Origin: a virus
Lineage: Duplodnaviria > Caudoviricetes
IMG/VR virus record: IMGVR_UViG_3300003937_000325
Reading direction: 5' to 3' (one strand)
Length of the DNA stretch: 64,000 bases
Shown here: positions 3,826-62,164 of the stretch, in pieces
How positions within the stretch are numbered: the first letter of the stretch is position 1
Layout: every line of letters starts with the position of its first letter
Notes under the pieces: model-generated
What the model was told of the DNA's origin: nothing
Seen by the model: the letters and a program-made list of their open reading frames with translations, nothing else
Database searches by the model: none
Program-made: the position numbers and the translations under genes

Positions 3826-3853
3826 AGATATAATTGTTTACTATAAATATTAG

Positions 3854-5361: not shown

Positions 5362-5481
5362 TGTATTTTGGTTTTATATTTCTTTAGTTTATTTAATTAT
5401 AAATATCCAGTTTAAAAGTTTTTCTATTTACTTTTATTTTTTTTTCAGTAATCTACTAGAGCAAATAAAATATAATAATAA

Positions 5482-6341: not shown

Positions 6342-6485
6342 TTAGTTTTTCTTATTAATTTTTACCATTAGTCTCTCTAATTGTGACTCAGATATAACAA
6401 TATTCTGAGGTTTTTTAGAAAAAGACTTTTTTCCGTCAGACTTTACGTTTAACGACTCGTTAAGTGTTTTTTTCTTGAATTCCAT
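6342..6485 (-). CDS. 47-aa basic mini-protein (not in ORF track) with IVISESQLERL motif
   Basis: Manual translation MEFKKKTLNESLNVKSDGKKSFSKKPQNIVISESQLERLMVKINKKN; fills the gap between sheath and HAD genes. Confidence 0.65.
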   Translation of the reverse strand: MEFKKKTLNESLNVKSDGKKSFSKKPQNIVISESQLERLMVKINKKN

Positions 6486-6516
6486 TTTATTTTTGTTTAA
6501 ACGTTTAATTGGCTAA

Positions 6517-6538
6517 GAGGAGGGAATTAACCCTCCTC
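6517..6538 (-). terminator. GC-rich hairpin after sheath gene (terminator or RNA-stability element)
   Basis: GAGGAGGG-AATTAA-CCCTCCTC perfect 8-bp stem; the U-tract is weak. Confidence 0.45.
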
Positions 6539-6561
6539 CTTAATATAAATATAGTTAGTTA

Positions 6562-9789: not shown

Positions 9790-9796
9790 ATAAATA
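9790..9796 (-). promoter_or_regulatory. Putative late promoter TATTTAT (sheath)
   Basis: ATAAATA on + strand, 33 nt upstream of the sheath ATG. Confidence 0.55.
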
Positions 9797-9890
9797 TTAG
9801 CAAAAAGATGAAAAAACTATTACATAAAGAGTATATTTATATAGAGTAGGAAAAAATTCTACCTTTTTTCTACTTTTTAAAAAAACATGG

Positions 9891-10040
9891 ATGAGTAAAA
9901 TAAAAAACATAAAAATTTCACCTGAGTCACATAAGACTTTAAAACTATACTGCGAAAAACACGGTTTAAAGATTTATAAATTCTTAGAAAAGTTAATTGA
10001 GGATAATTGTAAAGAAGTTAGAGATATCTACGGAGAGTAA
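9891..10040 (+). CDS. Ribbon-helix-helix (Arc/CopG-like) DNA-binding protein, 49 aa (not in ORF track)
   Basis: Manual translation MSKIKNIKISPESHKTLKLYCEKHGLKIYKFLEKLIEDNCKEVRDIYGE: alternating beta strand KNIKIS, helix A, G-turn, helix B. Confidence 0.7.
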   Translation: MSKIKNIKISPESHKTLKLYCEKHGLKIYKFLEKLIEDNCKEVRDIYGE

Positions 10041-12153: not shown

Positions 12154-12199
12154 ATATTGATAAATAGTTAGTTTATAGTTATATTATAAATATTAGATT

Positions 12200-13963: not shown

Positions 13964-14001
13964 AAAATTATAATTAACCATTATTTATAATAAAAAAATA
14001 A

Positions 14002-15564: not shown

Positions 15565-15605
15565 AGAAATGTAGTTTTCTGAATATTTATTAAGAAAACA
15601 CACAT

Positions 15606-16718
15606 ATGTCAGTAATAGTTGAACCACAAAGAACAAAACTTTATACCCGTGTAAAACACCTATTAGGTGCACCAATACGTAGTATTGAAATAGAAGATGA
15701 AATGATGGACTCTTTATTAGAGTTATCTATTCAGGATTACGCTCAATATGTGAATGATTGGTTAATAGAGTCTCAATGGACATCACTTTACGGTATGAAC
15801 TTAGATGAACAATCTGTCACAAGAGCATTCACTACTCGTTCATTAGACTGGGAAACTCAATACACCTATTCTTATTCTAAAATAGTTGGACTTCAAGCCG
15901 GTGGAGACTCAGTACTCAAAAAAGATTATATCGACTTAAAAACAAACCAACAAATTTATGAAATACCAGCAGGTAGAGAATTAAATGAATTATTATGGTT
16001 TTCAAGAGCAGAATTAGACGCAGCCTTTTTCGACCCATTTATGGGTGGATTTGGAGGTATGGGTGGTGTAGGTTTAGGTGGTGGTGCCGGATTTTCACAA
16101 ATGGGACAAACAGGTAATTACATGATAACACCCGCTTTTGACATTTTACTTAGAATGCAAGACATAAATTTAAAACGAAGACTTATTGGTGGTGAATTAA
16201 CGTATAGAGTAACTGCGTTACCTGAAGGAAAAAAAGCCGTACATCTTTATAATGTCCCTGGAGGTAAATTTGATTTTGGTACAATAGAAAATAACGAATA
16301 TAGAGTATGGTATTGGTATTACGAAACTAATGATAGGGAAGATTGTTTAGCTAAAAACCCTGATGTAGTGAGACTACCTTCTGATATTCCAATTGATGAA
16401 ATGTTATGGGCAGAACTAAATAATCCAGCACAAGCTTGGGTTAGAAAGTGGTTTGTTGCTTATGTTAAAGAAACTTTAGGACGTGTAAGAGGTAAATTTA
16501 GTGGTAATTTAAAAACTCCAGATTCTGAAGTAACAATGGATTACGATTCTTTACTCACTGAAGCTAAAGACGAAAAGAGTAAATTAATGGAAGAATTAAT
16601 GAATCGATTAGAAAGGTTAAGACCTGATAAGATGATGGAAAGAGAAGCTAATTTAGCTGAAAATTTAAATAAATCATTACAATACAGAGCGTTACCGAGA
16701 CAAATGTACGTAATTTAA
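15606..16718 (+). CDS. Neck / head-tail adaptor protein (T4 gp13-like)
   Basis: LGAPIRSIEIEDEM N-terminus and WVRKWFVAYVKETLGRVRGKFSG...MDYDSLL C-terminus are typical of gp13-like proteins. Confidence 0.75.
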   Translation: MSVIVEPQRTKLYTRVKHLLGAPIRSIEIEDEMMDSLLELSIQDYAQYVNDWLIESQWTSLYGMNLDEQSVTRAFTTRSLDWETQYTYSYSKIVGLQAGGDSVLKKDYIDLKTNQQIYEIPAGRELNELLWFSRAELDAAFFDPFMGGFGGMGGVGLGGGAGFSQMGQTGNYMITPAFDILLRMQDINLKRRLIGGELTYRVTALPEGKKAVHLYNVPGGKFDFGTIENNEYRVWYWYYETNDREDCLAKNPDVVRLPSDIPIDEMLWAELNNPAQAWVRKWFVAYVKETLGRVRGKFSGNLKTPDSEVTMDYDSLLTEAKDEKSKLMEELMNRLERLRPDKMMEREANLAENLNKSLQYRALPRQMYVI

Positions 16719-17059: not shown

Positions 17060-19859
17060 TATTCATATTTTTATTAACGTATTCCATATCCACTAATTTA
17101 GTTGTATTCTCAAGATACATGTAATATGGGTTTATGTTAACGTCATCCCAAAACCTAATTTCGGGGTCAGATAATGTTAATACTTCATCTAAATTATCCT
17201 GACTACCTTCTTTCATGGGGAATCCTCTAACCAACTTAGTTTGTGATTTAGTAAAAAACGGTCTATCATCTGGATTATCCACTAATATTTCACTACGAAT
17301 TTCAGGAGAAAACACTACCAACAAAGGTTCAATACGTTTATTAAATGCTGCCATATAACGAGGAATATTGTATTCACCTAATTTGTCAGGTGTTTCACTA
17401 ATATATTTATCATCAATTAAATAACAATTCAATACGATTTCTGTAGAATCTGGAGGCATTGGCTTACCATTATTTATTGCATATTCTCTCTTTTCTGCCG
17501 CAGTTGCATTCCACTTATTCTTTTTTTGAACATCACCGTGAGATTTTCGTTCACCATTATTGACATAATAGATAGTATCACCTAATCCCACATTTAAGTT
17601 ATGTTTTATAGCTAATTCCATATGTGCCTGTCGAGACATTAAAGACCCTGATTTGGTTCGTTTTTTTACGTGTAATTTATAATCACTTATACTTTGTTTA
17701 ACACGAGATTTATTGGCGATTTTAGAAATCGGTATCTCCAAGTTATAAATTTTATTTACATACTCATAATAAAAGTCTAAAAACTCATGACCTTTACCGT
17801 CCAATAATAGACGTAACCCTTGGTCCAAAAACTCTGCGACATACGTTTGAAGCTTTTTAGATTTAATACTATTACCTGTTAATTTAACCTTACCTGTATC
17901 AGTGAGTAGTGCGTAGTTTTTACGTGCAACATTTATAGTAGACGGCCATACACCGTCAGTATCTAACCCCATTTCACCTCTCATGAAAATATCATTATAC
18001 TCCGCTACGTCCGCCTCAGTACCAATATACTCTTTACCTTCTTCAACCAACCCGTTTAATCCTTTACCGATATATGTGTGTTTTTCACGTTCAGGTGGAG
18101 ATGAAAAGTTTACACCATCCGTATCCATCACTAATGGTTTGTAACCTCTCTTCATAAACCACATTATCATTTGTCTAAGATATTGTCTACCCGTACAGGT
18201 AATTTGTTCTCCCATATCCATATCACCCCACGGAAATACGTGTGGAGCGGATAATGACCCGAAAAATGCGTTAATGAATATTTTAATTGGTAATTGTTTA
18301 CGATTATACTTTTTAGATTGTTCTGGGTCTGAAACGTATAAATCTGAAGCCAATTTTTTATAAGTGATACGAGTATCTCTAAAATACTTTAACATACTCT
18401 TCATGGCTCCCGTTACATCACATTTAGGGAAGATATCATGAACTAACTGTATCGATGGGTATAGTGATGAGTAATCGAGTTTTAAAACGTCTGTAGAGTA
18501 CCCTACTGCCATCAATCTTGACAATCCACCTGTAAATGGTCGTTTTTCACCTTTCTTAGGAATTGCTAAGTTATGTTTATATGACCAAGCGGCCATAATC
18601 ATTTTCCATAATGTTGCGGTACCCATTGTTGATAGCCTCTCATATGTGGTAGGTACTAATTTAGATAGAAGGAAGTTTGCTTGATTAAACTCCTCGTCTA
18701 CAACCATAGTCTCCCATATATCATCATAGAGATACCTTTCAATAATGTAGTTCCCATTTACCTTTTCATAGTGTCCTGGAAATCTTTCCATTAGGTTTTC
18801 AGTACCTATTGAACCAACTTCTTTGTAACCACCTGTCTTTGGGTTGAAATAATAATCTTTGTTGTCAAAATAAATTTTACCAATTTTATCTCCTTCAACA
18901 TAAACACGGTTTTCTTTTTCCGCCCCAATAAATTGAGTTATGTATTTAAGACCCCAACTTTTAATGTCTGAGTTAATTGCTTGTGTTCTTCTAACTGCAT
19001 GTGCGATATCAATGATATTGTAACCCCACATCATTGTTTGAGTGTATGGTTCCATTTCATTCGCTAACTTCAACATACCCTCCTTCTGTCTTAACTTTTG
19101 TTTGGGATTTAATGTTTTAGATATTTTTTTGACATCTAACCCTAATATTTCCGCTCTACGAAGAATAAAAGGAAAATCGAAAAAGGCTGAGTTATAACCA
19201 CCAATCAAGGTCGGTTTTATACTTGCGATTGTATCAAAAAATTCAATAATAACTTTACGTTCCTCTTCATCGTTTTCACAAGCGATAACCTTTTCGAAAC
19301 CTTTATTATCTTTCATCCCTATAAGGAATATTTTACTATCCTCAGGAGATAGTCCTGTAGTCTCAATATCAAATACAAAACGATGTACCTCATCGTATTC
19401 ATCGAAACCTTTAAAAAGTCTTTTATTTTTTTGTATTAAATATTGTTCGGCAGGTGCTAGAATCATTATGTAGTCTGAATTACCACGACCCCATGGGTCT
19501 AATCCACCACCTTTAAAAAAGTTTACTAAATTACTATATGATTTAGTTGTCTTAACTAAATACTTTAAACCCTGTTCCATTCGGGTATCATTATGAGTAT
19601 CTAATGTCTCAATAATTATTCCATGTGTAGACATAGCTTGTTTTTGAGCTGCCTTAGAACCGCCATAAAAGTTGAGTCCTTGTAGGTTACCTACCCATGC
19701 AAATGGAATAAATGTGTCTGATTTTATTGATTTACCCTGTATTGGGTCTTGAATTACTTTGAATATTTTTCCTGACGCGTAATCATATTCTAACGCTACA
19801 ATATATTTTTCAGGGTCCTCTCCATTGAGGAACGTTTCAATTTGTTCTTGTGATACCAT
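17028..19859 (-). CDS. polB: Family B DNA polymerase (T4 gp43-like)
   Basis: Exo I FDIETTG, Exo II YNSAFFDF, region II LDYSSLYPS, region III KIFINAFFG, region I MDTDG. Confidence 0.95.
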   Translation of the reverse strand: MVSQEQIETFLNGEDPEKYIVALEYDYASGKIFKVIQDPIQGKSIKSDTFIPFAWVGNLQGLNFYGGSKAAQKQAMSTHGIIIETLDTHNDTRMEQGLKYLVKTTKSYSNLVNFFKGGGLDPWGRGNSDYIMILAPAEQYLIQKNKRLFKGFDEYDEVHRFVFDIETTGLSPEDSKIFLIGMKDNKGFEKVIACENDEEERKVIIEFFDTIASIKPTLIGGYNSAFFDFPFILRRAEILGLDVKKISKTLNPKQKLRQKEGMLKLANEMEPYTQTMMWGYNIIDIAHAVRRTQAINSDIKSWGLKYITQFIGAEKENRVYVEGDKIGKIYFDNKDYYFNPKTGGYKEVGSIGTENLMERFPGHYEKVNGNYIIERYLYDDIWETMVVDEEFNQANFLLSKLVPTTYERLSTMGTATLWKMIMAAWSYKHNLAIPKKGEKRPFTGGLSRLMAVGYSTDVLKLDYSSLYPSIQLVHDIFPKCDVTGAMKSMLKYFRDTRITYKKLASDLYVSDPEQSKKYNRKQLPIKIFINAFFGSLSAPHVFPWGDMDMGEQITCTGRQYLRQMIMWFMKRGYKPLVMDTDGVNFSSPPEREKHTYIGKGLNGLVEEGKEYIGTEADVAEYNDIFMRGEMGLDTDGVWPSTINVARKNYALLTDTGKVKLTGNSIKSKKLQTYVAEFLDQGLRLLLDGKGHEFLDFYYEYVNKIYNLEIPISKIANKSRVKQSISDYKLHVKKRTKSGSLMSRQAHMELAIKHNLNVGLGDTIYYVNNGERKSHGDVQKKNKWNATAAEKREYAINNGKPMPPDSTEIVLNCYLIDDKYISETPDKLGEYNIPRYMAAFNKRIEPLLVVFSPEIRSEILVDNPDDRPFFTKSQTKLVRGFPMKEGSQDNLDEVLTLSDPEIRFWDDVNINPYYMYLENTTKLVDMEYVNKNMNIMNSLDHQKT

Positions 19860-22224: not shown

Positions 22225-22318
22225 CTTAAATTATAAATATAGTTGATTTTATTATTCTTGTCATATTATTATAAATATATCCACTTTTAGTAATCTTATT
22301 ATATTTTTATTTACCTTT

Positions 22319-22672: not shown

Positions 22673-22705
22673 ACTATCAATAAATAGTTTTTATATTTAA
22701 TTAGG

Positions 22706-26722: not shown

Positions 26723-26748
26723 ATAAATACTTTGTTCGTAGTATTTAT
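26723..26748. promoter_or_regulatory. Back-to-back putative late promoters (ATAAATA 26723-26729; TATTTAT 26742-26748)
   Basis: Each copy lies 15 nt from the ATG of a divergent gene (26707 and 26764). Confidence 0.6.
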
Positions 26749-43290: not shown

Positions 43291-44097
43291 ATGGAAAATA
43301 AATTAAACGTATCAGTTATACTACCTATTAATTCTTCAAAAGTGAAAAACTTTGTTGAGTTCTTTAATAGTTGTATACTTTCAATAATAAAACAATCGAC
43401 ACCAATCGATGAGTTAGTTATTGTACATAGTGATGAAGAGTCACTAAAAGAAGTAGTTCAAAACTTTGACTATAGTGGTCTAACAGTAAACTTAGTTGAA
43501 AATACAGGTGATGTTGATTTCTCATCTCAAGTAAACTTAGGAGTTGAAAACGCTAAAAATGAATGGATTTCTTTATTAGAGTTTGATGATGAATATGCGT
43601 CAATATGGTTTAAAAATGTTAAACGATATATAGAAGCTTATCCAAAAGTATCAGGATTCTTACCATTAGTATTAGACGTAGATGAAAAAGGTGTTTTTGC
43701 TGGATTCACAAATGAGGCAACCTTTGCAGCTAATATGAATAGTGAGATTGGTTACTTAACTAATGAAGTTTTATTAAACTATCAAAATTTTCAAACAAGC
43801 GGAGTCGTACTTAAAAAATCAGTTTTTAAAGACTTTGGTGGATTTAAAAAATCCATGAAATTAACTTTTGTATATGAGTTCCTACTAAGGTTAAGTTATA
43901 ATTCAGTAGAAATAATGACAATACCTAGAATTGGTTACAAACACATGAACATGAGAGAGGGTTCAATTTTTTGGAATTACAAATTTGGTGAGCAAAAAAT
44001 ATCTGAAGACGAAGTTGCGTTTTGGATTGACTCGGCGAAAAAAGAACATTTTTTTATTGAAGATAGGGACATAAACTATCAAGCAATAGATGTTTAA
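43291..44097 (+). CDS. GT2-family glycosyltransferase
   Basis: SVILP, NLGVENAKNEWISLLEFDD. Confidence 0.75.
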   Translation: MENKLNVSVILPINSSKVKNFVEFFNSCILSIIKQSTPIDELVIVHSDEESLKEVVQNFDYSGLTVNLVENTGDVDFSSQVNLGVENAKNEWISLLEFDDEYASIWFKNVKRYIEAYPKVSGFLPLVLDVDEKGVFAGFTNEATFAANMNSEIGYLTNEVLLNYQNFQTSGVVLKKSVFKDFGGFKKSMKLTFVYEFLLRLSYNSVEIMTIPRIGYKHMNMREGSIFWNYKFGEQKISEDEVAFWIDSAKKEHFFIEDRDINYQAIDV

Positions 44098-44900
44098 TGT
44101 TTTTAGAACCAAAAAGTGCTACTACAACTAATAACGATTCAAATAAAGTGGTTGTTTCAGGTAATACTGAAACTCCTGAAGTGATTGAAAAGAAAAAAAG
44201 AGGTAGAAAACCAACAACTAATAATTATTTCGCGGAAAGAGAAGAGAGGGCAGTTAGATTATTTTTAACTGCCTCTACTTTTACTGAAAAAAATAAAATC
44301 TATGATGAATATCTAAGAGCACCTTTAGATAAAATGATTGAATCAATCATTAGAAGATATAAACTTTATAGAAAGGGGATGGAATTTCGTGAAATTAATC
44401 ATGACACCCACTCTTTTTTAATTACAAAGGTTGAAAAATTTAAACCTGAAAAAGGTAAAAAAGCATACTCTTATTTTGGTACGATATGTAAAAACTACCT
44501 AATGGGTATGATTATAAAAGACCAAAAAGAACAAAATAGGAAAATATCATATGAAGATATAACTACTAAATTAGAAAGTAGGCCTGATATGATTTACTAT
44601 CTTGAAAATGAAAAGATAGAGGCAACGGATGTGATTAAAAGATTCATAAAAGAACTTAATGATTATATAGAAAATACCGATTTAAATAATAACGAATTAA
44701 AGTTAGGATACGCTTTGATGGAGTTATTTGAGAATTATAACAATATTTTTATAGGAACGGATAATAATAAATTTAATAAAAATATAATACTACTATCTCT
44801 ACGTGATATGACAAATATGTCTACTAAGGAAATAAGGACATCAATGAGAAAGTATAAGAAATTATATTATGAGTTGACAAATAAATTACATAATCTATAA
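44097..44900 (+). CDS. Phage late sigma factor (T4 gp55-like)
   Basis: Sigma region 2-like FKPEKGKKAYSYFGTICKNYL resembles the gp55 'F-x-P...AFSYFT' region; last gene of a non-structural operon, immediately before late genes. Confidence 0.7.
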   Translation: MFLEPKSATTTNNDSNKVVVSGNTETPEVIEKKKRGRKPTTNNYFAEREERAVRLFLTASTFTEKNKIYDEYLRAPLDKMIESIIRRYKLYRKGMEFREINHDTHSFLITKVEKFKPEKGKKAYSYFGTICKNYLMGMIIKDQKEQNRKISYEDITTKLESRPDMIYYLENEKIEATDVIKRFIKELNDYIENTDLNNNELKLGYALMELFENYNNIFIGTDNNKFNKNIILLSLRDMTNMSTKEIRTSMRKYKKLYYELTNKLHNL

Positions 44901-44911
44901 AAAAATTATTC

Positions 44912-44925
44912 TATAAATATTTATA
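44912..44925. promoter_or_regulatory. Palindromic double late-promoter site TATAAATATTTATA
   Basis: Perfect 14-bp palindrome; the plus-strand TATTTAT is 6 nt before the ATG at 44931. Confidence 0.55.
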
Positions 44926-44930
44926 ACATT

Positions 44931-45305
44931 ATGGCAAGACCTAAAAAAAAAGAAATAGTATTAAGTAAAGACTCAGTTCTTTCACTTATGCAAGAAATTT
45001 ACAACGAACTTGTAGAACAAAGAGCGACCGCTATAAGAATACAAAATAAAATGTTGGCGATGTTAAAGGACCCTGAGGATATGACCGTTATTGGACCTGT
45101 TATCAAAGAACAACAAAAAATCGTAAATGATACTATAGAAAAGAAACTATCACTTTCTAAGTTACAGTCAACAATATGGGAAAAAACTAATAATACCTCA
45201 AGCGAGGAATTTAGTTTATCTGAAATTGATGATGACACATTACAAACCTTAATACAACAAGATTTAAGCAGTGGTGACAAGAAGGACGGTTATAAACTTG
45301 ATTAA
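44931..45305 (+). CDS. Helical protein, possibly terminase small subunit (gp16-like)
   Basis: VIGPVIKEQQKIVNDTIEKKLSLSKLQ loosely resembles the gp16 central helices; weak. Confidence 0.3.
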   Translation: MARPKKKEIVLSKDSVLSLMQEIYNELVEQRATAIRIQNKMLAMLKDPEDMTVIGPVIKEQQKIVNDTIEKKLSLSKLQSTIWEKTNNTSSEEFSLSEIDDDTLQTLIQQDLSSGDKKDGYKLD

Positions 45306-49036: not shown

Positions 49037-49058
49037 GTATTTATATTAAAAAGAGTTT

Positions 49059-50780: not shown

Positions 50781-50788
50781 TATATTTG
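50781..50788 (+). promoter_or_regulatory. Bacteroidota-type -7 element TATATTTG (TTG 20 nt upstream)
   Basis: Exact TAnnTTTG match upstream of ORF 50808. Confidence 0.45.
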
Positions 50789-53133: not shown

Positions 53134-53213
53134 ACTTGATTATTACTATAATTTTATTATCTATTAAATAAATATAACGAGAAATAAACTTATTCATTAA
53201 ATAAAAAAACAAA

Positions 53214-57196: not shown

Positions 57197-57290
57197 TTTA
57201 GTTATTTTTTTGCAAAATGTTTATTTATAGTTTTTATAATAAATATACACGAATTAAAAAAAAATCACTTTATAAAACAATAGGCAAAAA

Positions 57291-58295: not shown

Positions 58296-58322
58296 ATCTT
58301 TTATTTTATAAATATGCTACGT

Positions 58323-58709: not shown

Positions 58710-58733
58710 TTAGTTGTTTTAACTATAAATAGA

Positions 58734-59257: not shown

Positions 59258-59264
59258 TATTTAT
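59258..59264 (+). promoter_or_regulatory. Putative late promoter TATTTAT for bS21
   Basis: 15 nt upstream of the bS21 ATG. Confidence 0.55.
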
Positions 59265-59279
59265 TATAATAAGTCATAT

Positions 59280-59471
59280 ATGTTAATAATAGAAATAGGA
59301 AAAAAAGAAAATATCGAAAGAGCCTTAAAAAGGTATAAGAATAAAGTTTATAAGACTAAACAGTTGAATAGGCTTCGAGAGGAAAAAGAGTTTACTAAGA
59401 AGTCTACTAAGAGACGTAAACAAAAACAAAAAGCCATTTATATCCAAAAAATAAAGGATTCAGAAATCTGA
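59280..59471 (+). CDS. rpsU: Phage-encoded 30S ribosomal protein bS21 (Bacteroidota type)
   Basis: MLIIEI...ENIERALKRYK...LREEKEFTKKSTKRR...KAIYIQ closely follows the Flavobacterium bS21 pattern. Confidence 0.92.
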   Translation: MLIIEIGKKENIERALKRYKNKVYKTKQLNRLREEKEFTKKSTKRRKQKQKAIYIQKIKDSEI

Positions 59472-60239: not shown

Positions 60240-60259
60240 AACGTTTTTTATTATAAATA

Positions 60260-62116: not shown

Positions 62117-62164
62117 ACTTCTTTTTTAGATAAATAGTAACATTATTTGAATTAAACTAAACAT

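Follow-up and report, generated by a model that had tools for sequence, protein, structure and literature searches.

A gp55-related sigma protein and a TATTTAT box point to a variant of T4-type late transcription in large phages of probable Bacteroidota hosts

The DNA analysed here (the window, 64,000 nucleotides) is part of a large gp23-type myovirus with recognisable genes for portal, terminase, prohead protease, major capsid protein, sheath, tube and a polymerase of the family B type. The phage is uncultured; the stretch is present in marine RNA runs, exact copies of its scaffold protein occur on contigs of up to 285 kb, and an Rfam search of the window gave no match. Inside the head block, on the strand opposite to portal, protease and capsid, lies a bS21 gene (59280-59471; PF01165, E 1.4e-9) with a TATTTAT box upstream (59258-59264, plus strand, 15 nt before the gene). 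Three near-complete relatives of 270-297 kb served as the comparison set. Their genomes show the Bacteroidota sigma A promoter, with TTTG some 20 nt ahead of TAnnTTTG, and Shine-Dalgarno (SD) sequences are nearly absent from them, so the host is most likely a member of the Bacteroidota.

The last gene of a run of sugar, PhoH and GT2 genes (44097-44900, plus strand) encodes a protein of 267 aa that the initial annotation had called a gp55-like sigma. The ORF is coupled to the GT2 gene by a TAATG overlap and has no TATTTAT upstream. The window protein alone has no match in Pfam or PHROGs and none by tblastn against cultured phages, where homologues surfaced only with profiles. The family is nevertheless large and viral, with at least 8000 close homologues and 699 clusters at 50% identity (E up to 1e-10). 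A structure model built from 97 diverse members reached a pLDDT of 88.5, compared with 68 for an earlier model from close homologues, and comprises a low-confidence N-tail (residues 1-40), a sigma2 domain with a gp55-type N-terminal segment (43-168) and an extra four-helix C-terminal domain (175-266). The N-tail (44097-44220) ends in a basic KKKRGRKP patch before the folded domain, and this patch is conserved in the family.

The top PDB match of the model was T4 gp55 (7d7d_F), with Z 11.0 over 117 aligned residues of 43-168 and an rmsd of 5.2. Other sigma2 domains came next at Z 8-10, a margin that is modest for helical proteins, and the sequence evidence therefore matters. The late-sigma family phrog_234 was the commonest family match (29 of the 97 members, best E 7.5e-6, against 3 for the RpoD-type family), the family profile matched T4 gene 55 at E 0.002, and HHalign to gp55 gave E 1.3e-4. 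In addition, gp55 has specific aromatics at positions 10 and 23 (PMC2988020); Y44 corresponds to gp55 Y10 in 95 of 96 alignment rows, and F56 corresponds to W23. Residues 175-267 matched sigma4 at Z 5.2-6.0, among unrelated helical bundles. By inspection, the acidic-hydrophobic sliding-clamp binding motif is absent and the C-terminus is a basic helix of the folded domain, unlike the T4 tail. Searches for gp33 and gp45 (PF16805, PF09116), which scored T4 as positive and could miss divergent homologues, found neither in two near-complete relatives, in Flavobacterium phage immuto or in Rhodothermus phage RM378. The relation to gp55 is supported by structure match, HHalign and phrog_234, and the protein family is best placed beside gp55, as its sister, rather than within it.

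The same annotation had listed copies of TATTTAT shortly before structural or late genes. All 22 are present and all lie on the coding strand; the box-to-ATG distance (d), given there as 6-50 nt and mostly 12-17, is 12-17 for 12 of the 21 genes. On the minus strand, boxes precede the tail tube (5361; box 5399-5405, d 37), the tail sheath (9756; 9790-9796, d 33), the prohead protease (58295; 58308-58314, d 12) and the portal (62116; 62130-62136, d 13), and the box at 57239-57245 (d 42 before 57196) heads the scaffold and major capsid operon. Further minus-strand copies stand before the ORFs starting at 1797 (1815-1821, d 17), 3825 (3843-3849, d 17), 22672 (22680-22686, d 7), 53133 (53168-53174, d 34), 58709, a hypothetical gene (58725-58731, d 15), and 60239 (60253-60259, d 13), and two genes have a pair each: 12153 (12160-12166 and 12186-12192, d 6 and d 32) and 22224 (22233-22239 and 22271-22277, d 8 and d 46). 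On the plus strand, besides the bS21 box, copies precede 14002 (13982-13988, d 13), the head-tail adaptor at 15606 (15584-15590, d 15) and 49059 (49038-49044, d 14). Two boxes stand back to back at 26723-26729 (minus) and 26742-26748 (plus), each at d 15 from its own divergent gene (26707 and 26764). The plus-strand box at 44918-44924, which overlaps a minus-strand copy at 44913-44919, precedes the gene at 44931, directly after the sigma gene, with d 6, placing it in the leaderless class; in 55 of 59 relatives this box lies at d 4-7. As for the nature of the targets, tube, sheath, head-tail adaptor, prohead protease and portal do match structural families, as does bS21 its own family, while the rest are hypothetical.

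Two copies are accompanied by hairpins. The box at 6545-6551 (minus) stands, as had been described, directly before a 10-bp hairpin that follows the sheath gene, and beyond it come a 47-aa ORF (6485) and 6333. The box at 9834-9840 (plus) lies at d 50 from a 49-aa ORF (9891), with a terminator-like hairpin followed by U5 between them, and is an uncertain member of the set. The two segments (6342-6551 and 9834-10040) flank the sheath gene on both sides with the same arrangement of box, immediate hairpin and an ORF of 47-49 aa; the 9891 product shows a weak likeness to ribbon-helix-helix regulators (PF10723, E 0.009). The absence of sense TATTTAT before the DNA polymerase (19859, phrog_262), the SNF2 helicase (12200) and the sugar and GT operons was also found as described. 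The sense ATAAATA before the divergent helicase is due to the two minus-strand boxes of 12153.

In such AT-rich spacers, TATTTAT could be a chance AT-rich word, and the word itself is indeed not over-represented, with 59 copies in the window and 57.2 +/- 8.4 expected. Its placement is another matter. Intergenic DNA, 4.7 kb in all, holds 27 of the 59 copies. TATTTAT lies within 50 nt upstream of 18 of the 63 window genes, compared with 2.7 +/- 1.6 (maximum 8) in dinucleotide shuffles, and of 77/312, 94/356 and 74/275 genes in the three relatives, compared with 14, 19 and 14. This enrichment in position and strand, named beforehand as a test of the idea, is 5-7-fold over composition-matched shuffles in the window and the relatives. 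Before tandem genes, 190 sense copies stand against 49 antisense ones (p 9e-21), a bias of 4:1, and the box is found at 7.7 per kb in divergent spacers compared with 1.3 per kb in convergent ones (6:1). Variants with one mismatch are mostly without enrichment, and the box is conserved across divergent phages; the eighth base, after TATTTAT, is A in about 60% of the sites. For sense ATAAATA the ratio to the shuffle mean was 1.4-1.5, close to the highest shuffle value, and between a third and a half of these copies are in fact boxes that belong to a divergent gene. Shuffle enrichment, strand bias and divergent-spacer density refute the chance reading, to which we assign practically no probability. 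About a quarter of all genes in the relatives carry the box, many of them hypothetical, so the label 'late' may be too narrow for the genes it marks.

The box marks the heads of units. It was found before 83 of 196 divergent-first genes and 150 of 365 tandem genes with a gap above 20 nt (233/561 together), compared with 6 of 348 translationally coupled genes, a contrast that is not decisive alone, the coupled class being constrained by coding sequence. Among 80 capsid loci, every one with intact upstream DNA has the box ahead of the scaffold gene, but a single one has it ahead of the major capsid gene; its absence there in the other 79 speaks against a role as a signal for translation. RNA mapping in bS21 phages showed the major capsid gene co-transcribed with its upstream gene and the protease with its downstream gene (PMC9723584), and the box positions here show the same unit pattern. 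Over 263 sites, base frequencies upstream of TATTTAT were flat, with no conserved element and no -35 element, as in the T4 gp55 system, whereas the same analysis recovered the TTTG of the host class. The Bacteroidota sigma A promoter has TAnnTTTG at -12 to -5 and an upstream TTTG; TATTTAT sites are without both, and the host-type promoter is found on a separate gene set. Word counts revealed no third promoter class, and mutual exclusion of late and host-type boxes was not significant per genome. Placement, strand, head-of-unit counts and capsid loci thus agree with the earlier proposal of a late promoter before structural genes: the box behaves as a promoter specific to the phage that heads units of virion genes.

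A host-type TATATTTG box also occurs in the window, at about 50781-50788 (plus), before 50808; the relatives' host class likewise peaks leaderless, at d 4.

Could TATTTAT instead act in the mRNA, as a U-rich S1 or bS21-linked translation enhancer that replaces the Shine-Dalgarno sequence? In favour of this, the leaders lack SD sequences and are rich in A, the ATG is 12-17 nt away for half of the window copies, and the phage encodes bS21. Nevertheless, the absence of the box before the major capsid gene and before 342 of the 348 coupled genes argues against such an element, as do a distance to the ATG that runs from 4 to more than 45 nt and a flanking A bias that tracks the box and not the ATG. 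Moreover, in Microcystis phage Mel-JY01 the box is upstream of the leaders, which bear GGAG downstream of it, and immuto uses the box with no annotated bS21 in 150 kb of its annotation. We therefore regard an mRNA element as highly unlikely, and return to TATTTAT as a promoter.

The distances from the box to the ATG place the predicted start site. They are bimodal, peaking at 4-6 and 13-19 with a trough at 9-12, and they break off sharply at 4, below which there are almost none. An SD-like sequence was seen in 1 of 263 leaders, and the peak at d 4-6 represents a leaderless class; both features had been anticipated in the initial annotation. The host-type box has the same edge (17 of 63 at d 4), and in the Bacteroidota its position is known, -12 to -5 (PMC9723704), so that a gene at d 4 there has a leaderless mRNA. 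If the late box is placed in a similar way, its end would lie at about -6 or -5. A peak of A (94, 90 and 88%) stays at offset 5 after the box while the ATG distance goes from 12 to 19, and is weaker for long leaders; a peak that tracks the box and not the ATG is as expected of a start site. A run of at least three A's follows 72% of the leadered late boxes, compared with 47% of the host-type boxes and 27% of the control positions. From these patterns we infer that transcription would start 4-6 nt downstream of the box, often in an A-run, giving leaderless or short-leadered mRNAs.

The RNA data consist of assembled contigs, from which neither strand nor start sites can be determined. One contig of depth 200 from run X2 (57231-57235, minus) has its end at 57235, on the first A, three bases beyond the scaffold/capsid box; there, 21 untemplated A's are joined to the A-run. 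On the same gene, a contig from another study stops at 57218, in adapter. For the portal, one contig extends to 62127, where the run of A's that follows the box has its first A, and another run spans the portal box. The ends at 57235 and 62127 agree with the predicted start and give a weak hint in its favour. The 21 A's possibly reflect reiterative initiation (slippage), or a template-switch or library artefact that would give the same junction. A poly(A)-leader junction was sought twice among JGI contigs, at the tail tube and at the scaffold; no second case came up in this collection, which may contain few RNA assemblies, and an exact-protein look-up for further RNA ends returned long DNA contigs only. 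At AAA start sites in E. coli, slippage gives productive reiterative initiation (PMC12709180), and poxvirus mRNAs are described as carrying 5' poly(A) leaders (PMC12722222). Those systems likewise combine an A-run at the start site with untemplated 5' A's, here seen in a single contig. It is conceivable, although doubtful, that the late promoters are built to start in A-runs and that slippage produces long untemplated 5' poly(A) leaders. Equally speculative is the wider idea that the sigma family forms a self-sufficient late switch, in which the C-terminal domain replaces gp33 and the clamp, combined with 5' poly(A) leaders made by slippage. If true, the leaders would be a poxvirus-like device suited to the SD-blind ribosomes of the Bacteroidota.

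We next consider the direction in which the box is read. The initial annotation had taken TATTTAT for an 'inverted' -10 element, and this view was not supported by comparison with T4: read forward, TATTTAT(A) and TATAAATA share six of eight bases and differ at the two central ones only. In T4 gp55, deep pockets take up A-12 and A-8 of TATAAATA, and A-9 sits in a shallow pocket lined by N13 and H95 (PMC7892883). The shared bases are the first three and the last three, including both deep-pocket adenines. TATTTATA is the exact reverse complement of TATAAATA, which follows from the near-palindromic nature of TATAAATA. In the sigma, the counterparts of gp55 R57, F86 and Y97 are kept and L54 is matched by I84, while N13, H95 and T99 are replaced by E47, Y124 and G128; the aromatic residue that stacks on the upstream A is also kept (gp55 Y97, here Y126). 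The assignment of these residues to individual bases is a putative one, taken from the alignment. Sense TATAAATA is near the shuffle range (13-15 copies, shuffle maximum 13-15), and it is TATTTAT(A) that is strongly enriched instead.

A reversed reading would have the sigma recognise the T4-type TATAAATA in opposite polarity, or transcription run in the TATAAATA direction to give antisense RNA. The exact complementarity of TATTTATA, together with the A found as eighth base in most sites, speaks for it. It would nevertheless need sigma2 to act on the template strand, unlike gp55 (PMC7892883); the residues of the sigma2 pockets line up with those of gp55 as usual, and transcription in the TATAAATA direction would run away from the genes. 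The same-direction match with its adenines, and the box of phage RM378 (TATTTAA), which does not reverse-complement the T4 box, also count against it, leaving the reversed reading scarcely credible. Very probably, then, the box is read forward in the ordinary way with shifted specificity, and is not a T4 promoter reversed.

The association of protein and box extends to other phages, and the sigma family occurs in three cultured ones (immuto, Mel-JY01 and RM378). A gp55-like protein was present in 8 of 8 box-using genomes examined. Flavobacterium phage vB_FspM_immuto_2-6A (NC_055915) encodes a homologue (E 2e-36) annotated as 'hypothetical protein' (gp118), and has TATTTAT before terminase, portal, tube and sheath; the gene after the sigma carries the box, as in the window. 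Between 67.6 and 76.3 kb, immuto also has a run of small genes, each with a near-identical upstream promoter-like block, TAT(A/C)TTTAG(G/A)TAT, a host-box variant. In Microcystis phage Mel-JY01 (PP395634) the homologue (E 2e-30) is likewise annotated 'hypothetical protein', and the box precedes terminase, portal and tube. Mel-JY01 has bS21, the same sigma family and capsid kinship with immuto, and its recorded Microcystis host may deserve a check. RM378 (NC_004735) encodes a distant homologue at 17110-17661 (E 2e-16), and its TATTTAA, one base from TATTTAT, precedes 32 of 82 unit heads with 2.6 expected. By contrast, LR756508, a 484-kb phage, encodes a clear homologue (E 3e-37), yet TATTTAT is not enriched in the 200 kb covered (50-250 kb), so sigma family and box co-vary imperfectly; alternative genetic codes gave no clear explanation of the missing box.

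Another factor might read the promoter: an RpoD-type phage sigma, the host sigma A, or a phage-modified sigma A, as proposed for Thermus phage Lalka27a. A second sigma, RpoD-type and of 274 aa, is encoded in four of five relatives (G003, 67714-68538, minus strand; also G002, G005 and G006), the box shares its initial TA and its approximate spacing with the host box, and LR756508 shows that the sigma family can occur without the box. However, no Sigma70_r2 match was found in immuto or Mel-JY01, which use the box, and this co-occurrence favours the gp55-like protein as its reader. The presence of that protein in all eight box-using genomes, and the lack in the box of the TTTG core and upstream TTTG of the host promoter, also oppose a different reader, which we consider unlikely. 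The RpoD-type sigma gene has a host-type box upstream, and its product could serve early or middle genes.

The placement, strand, spacing and conservation of the box, the fold of the sigma and the co-occurrence of the two are matters of observation, and we consider it likely, with good confidence, that TATTTAT is a forward, phage-specific, -10-only promoter read by the 267-aa gp55-related sigma, in a phage with two promoter classes. What we infer is which protein reads the box, exactly where transcription starts, that the marked genes are late, and what the C-terminal domain does. In this scheme, host-type promoters (TTTG, about 20 nt, TAnnTTTG) would serve one gene set and TATTTAT the other. 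The sigma, made from the end of the sugar/GT operon, would bind host core RNA polymerase through sigma2, as its fold suggests, and would melt the box by flipping non-template bases as gp55 does, with the upstream A entering the conserved F115/Y126 pocket. E47, Y124 and G128 would be the changed residues where T4 reads the central A's. Initiation would then take place some 4-6 nt downstream, mostly on A, and leave A-rich, SD-less leaders, usually of 8-14 nt, or none.

As described so far, T4-type late transcription relies on a box that hardly varies and on a switch of three proteins. Our verdict is that TATTTAT and its sigma are a real, widespread variant of it, with a different box and a different domain plan. 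The sigma would be a large sister family in abundant aquatic Bacteroidota phages, where it is annotated as hypothetical. The series TATAAAT, TATTTAT and TATTTAA could reveal how sigma2 pockets set the -10 sequence, and with the help of the box, transcription units could be called in the genomes of uncultured phages. A bench system for asking if late transcription can run without gp33 and clamp would be immuto with Flavobacterium sp. LMO8 as its host. In the literature searched, with subscription papers outside its scope, we found no published description of the box or of the sigma family. New here are the hint from RNA ends, a start register anchored on the motif, the comparison of pocket residues, the variant box of RM378 and immuto as a test system.

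Compared with known systems, the window phage shares with the bS21-encoding Bacteroidetes phages (PMC9723584) their hallmark, bS21 on the reverse strand within the portal-protease-capsid block, and the RNA-mapped units of those phages agree with its box positions. The words promoters, motifs and sigma factors have 0 occurrences in that study (Chen et al. 2022), and the window phage differs by its presence in marine RNA runs. Thermus phages Lalka27a and YS40 (bioRxiv 10.64898/2026.04.20.719267) likewise have a distinct late -10 box and many leaderless phage mRNAs, but their box is TAGGGT plus a C at -25, and they have no recognisable phage sigma. The T4 gp55 system, with gp33 and the sliding clamp gp45 (PMC7892883, PMC2988020), likewise uses a phage sigma2-type factor and a -10-only promoter that marks virion genes, and the equivalents of gp55 Y10, W23 (as an aromatic), L54, R57, F86 and Y97 are conserved in the window sigma. 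The differences from T4 are that the central AA of the box is TT here, that the predicted start lies 1-2 nt closer to the box than at T4 P23, that the sigma has an extra C-terminal helical domain of about 90 aa, and that the mRNAs are SD-less or leaderless, in a host that is most likely one of the Bacteroidota.
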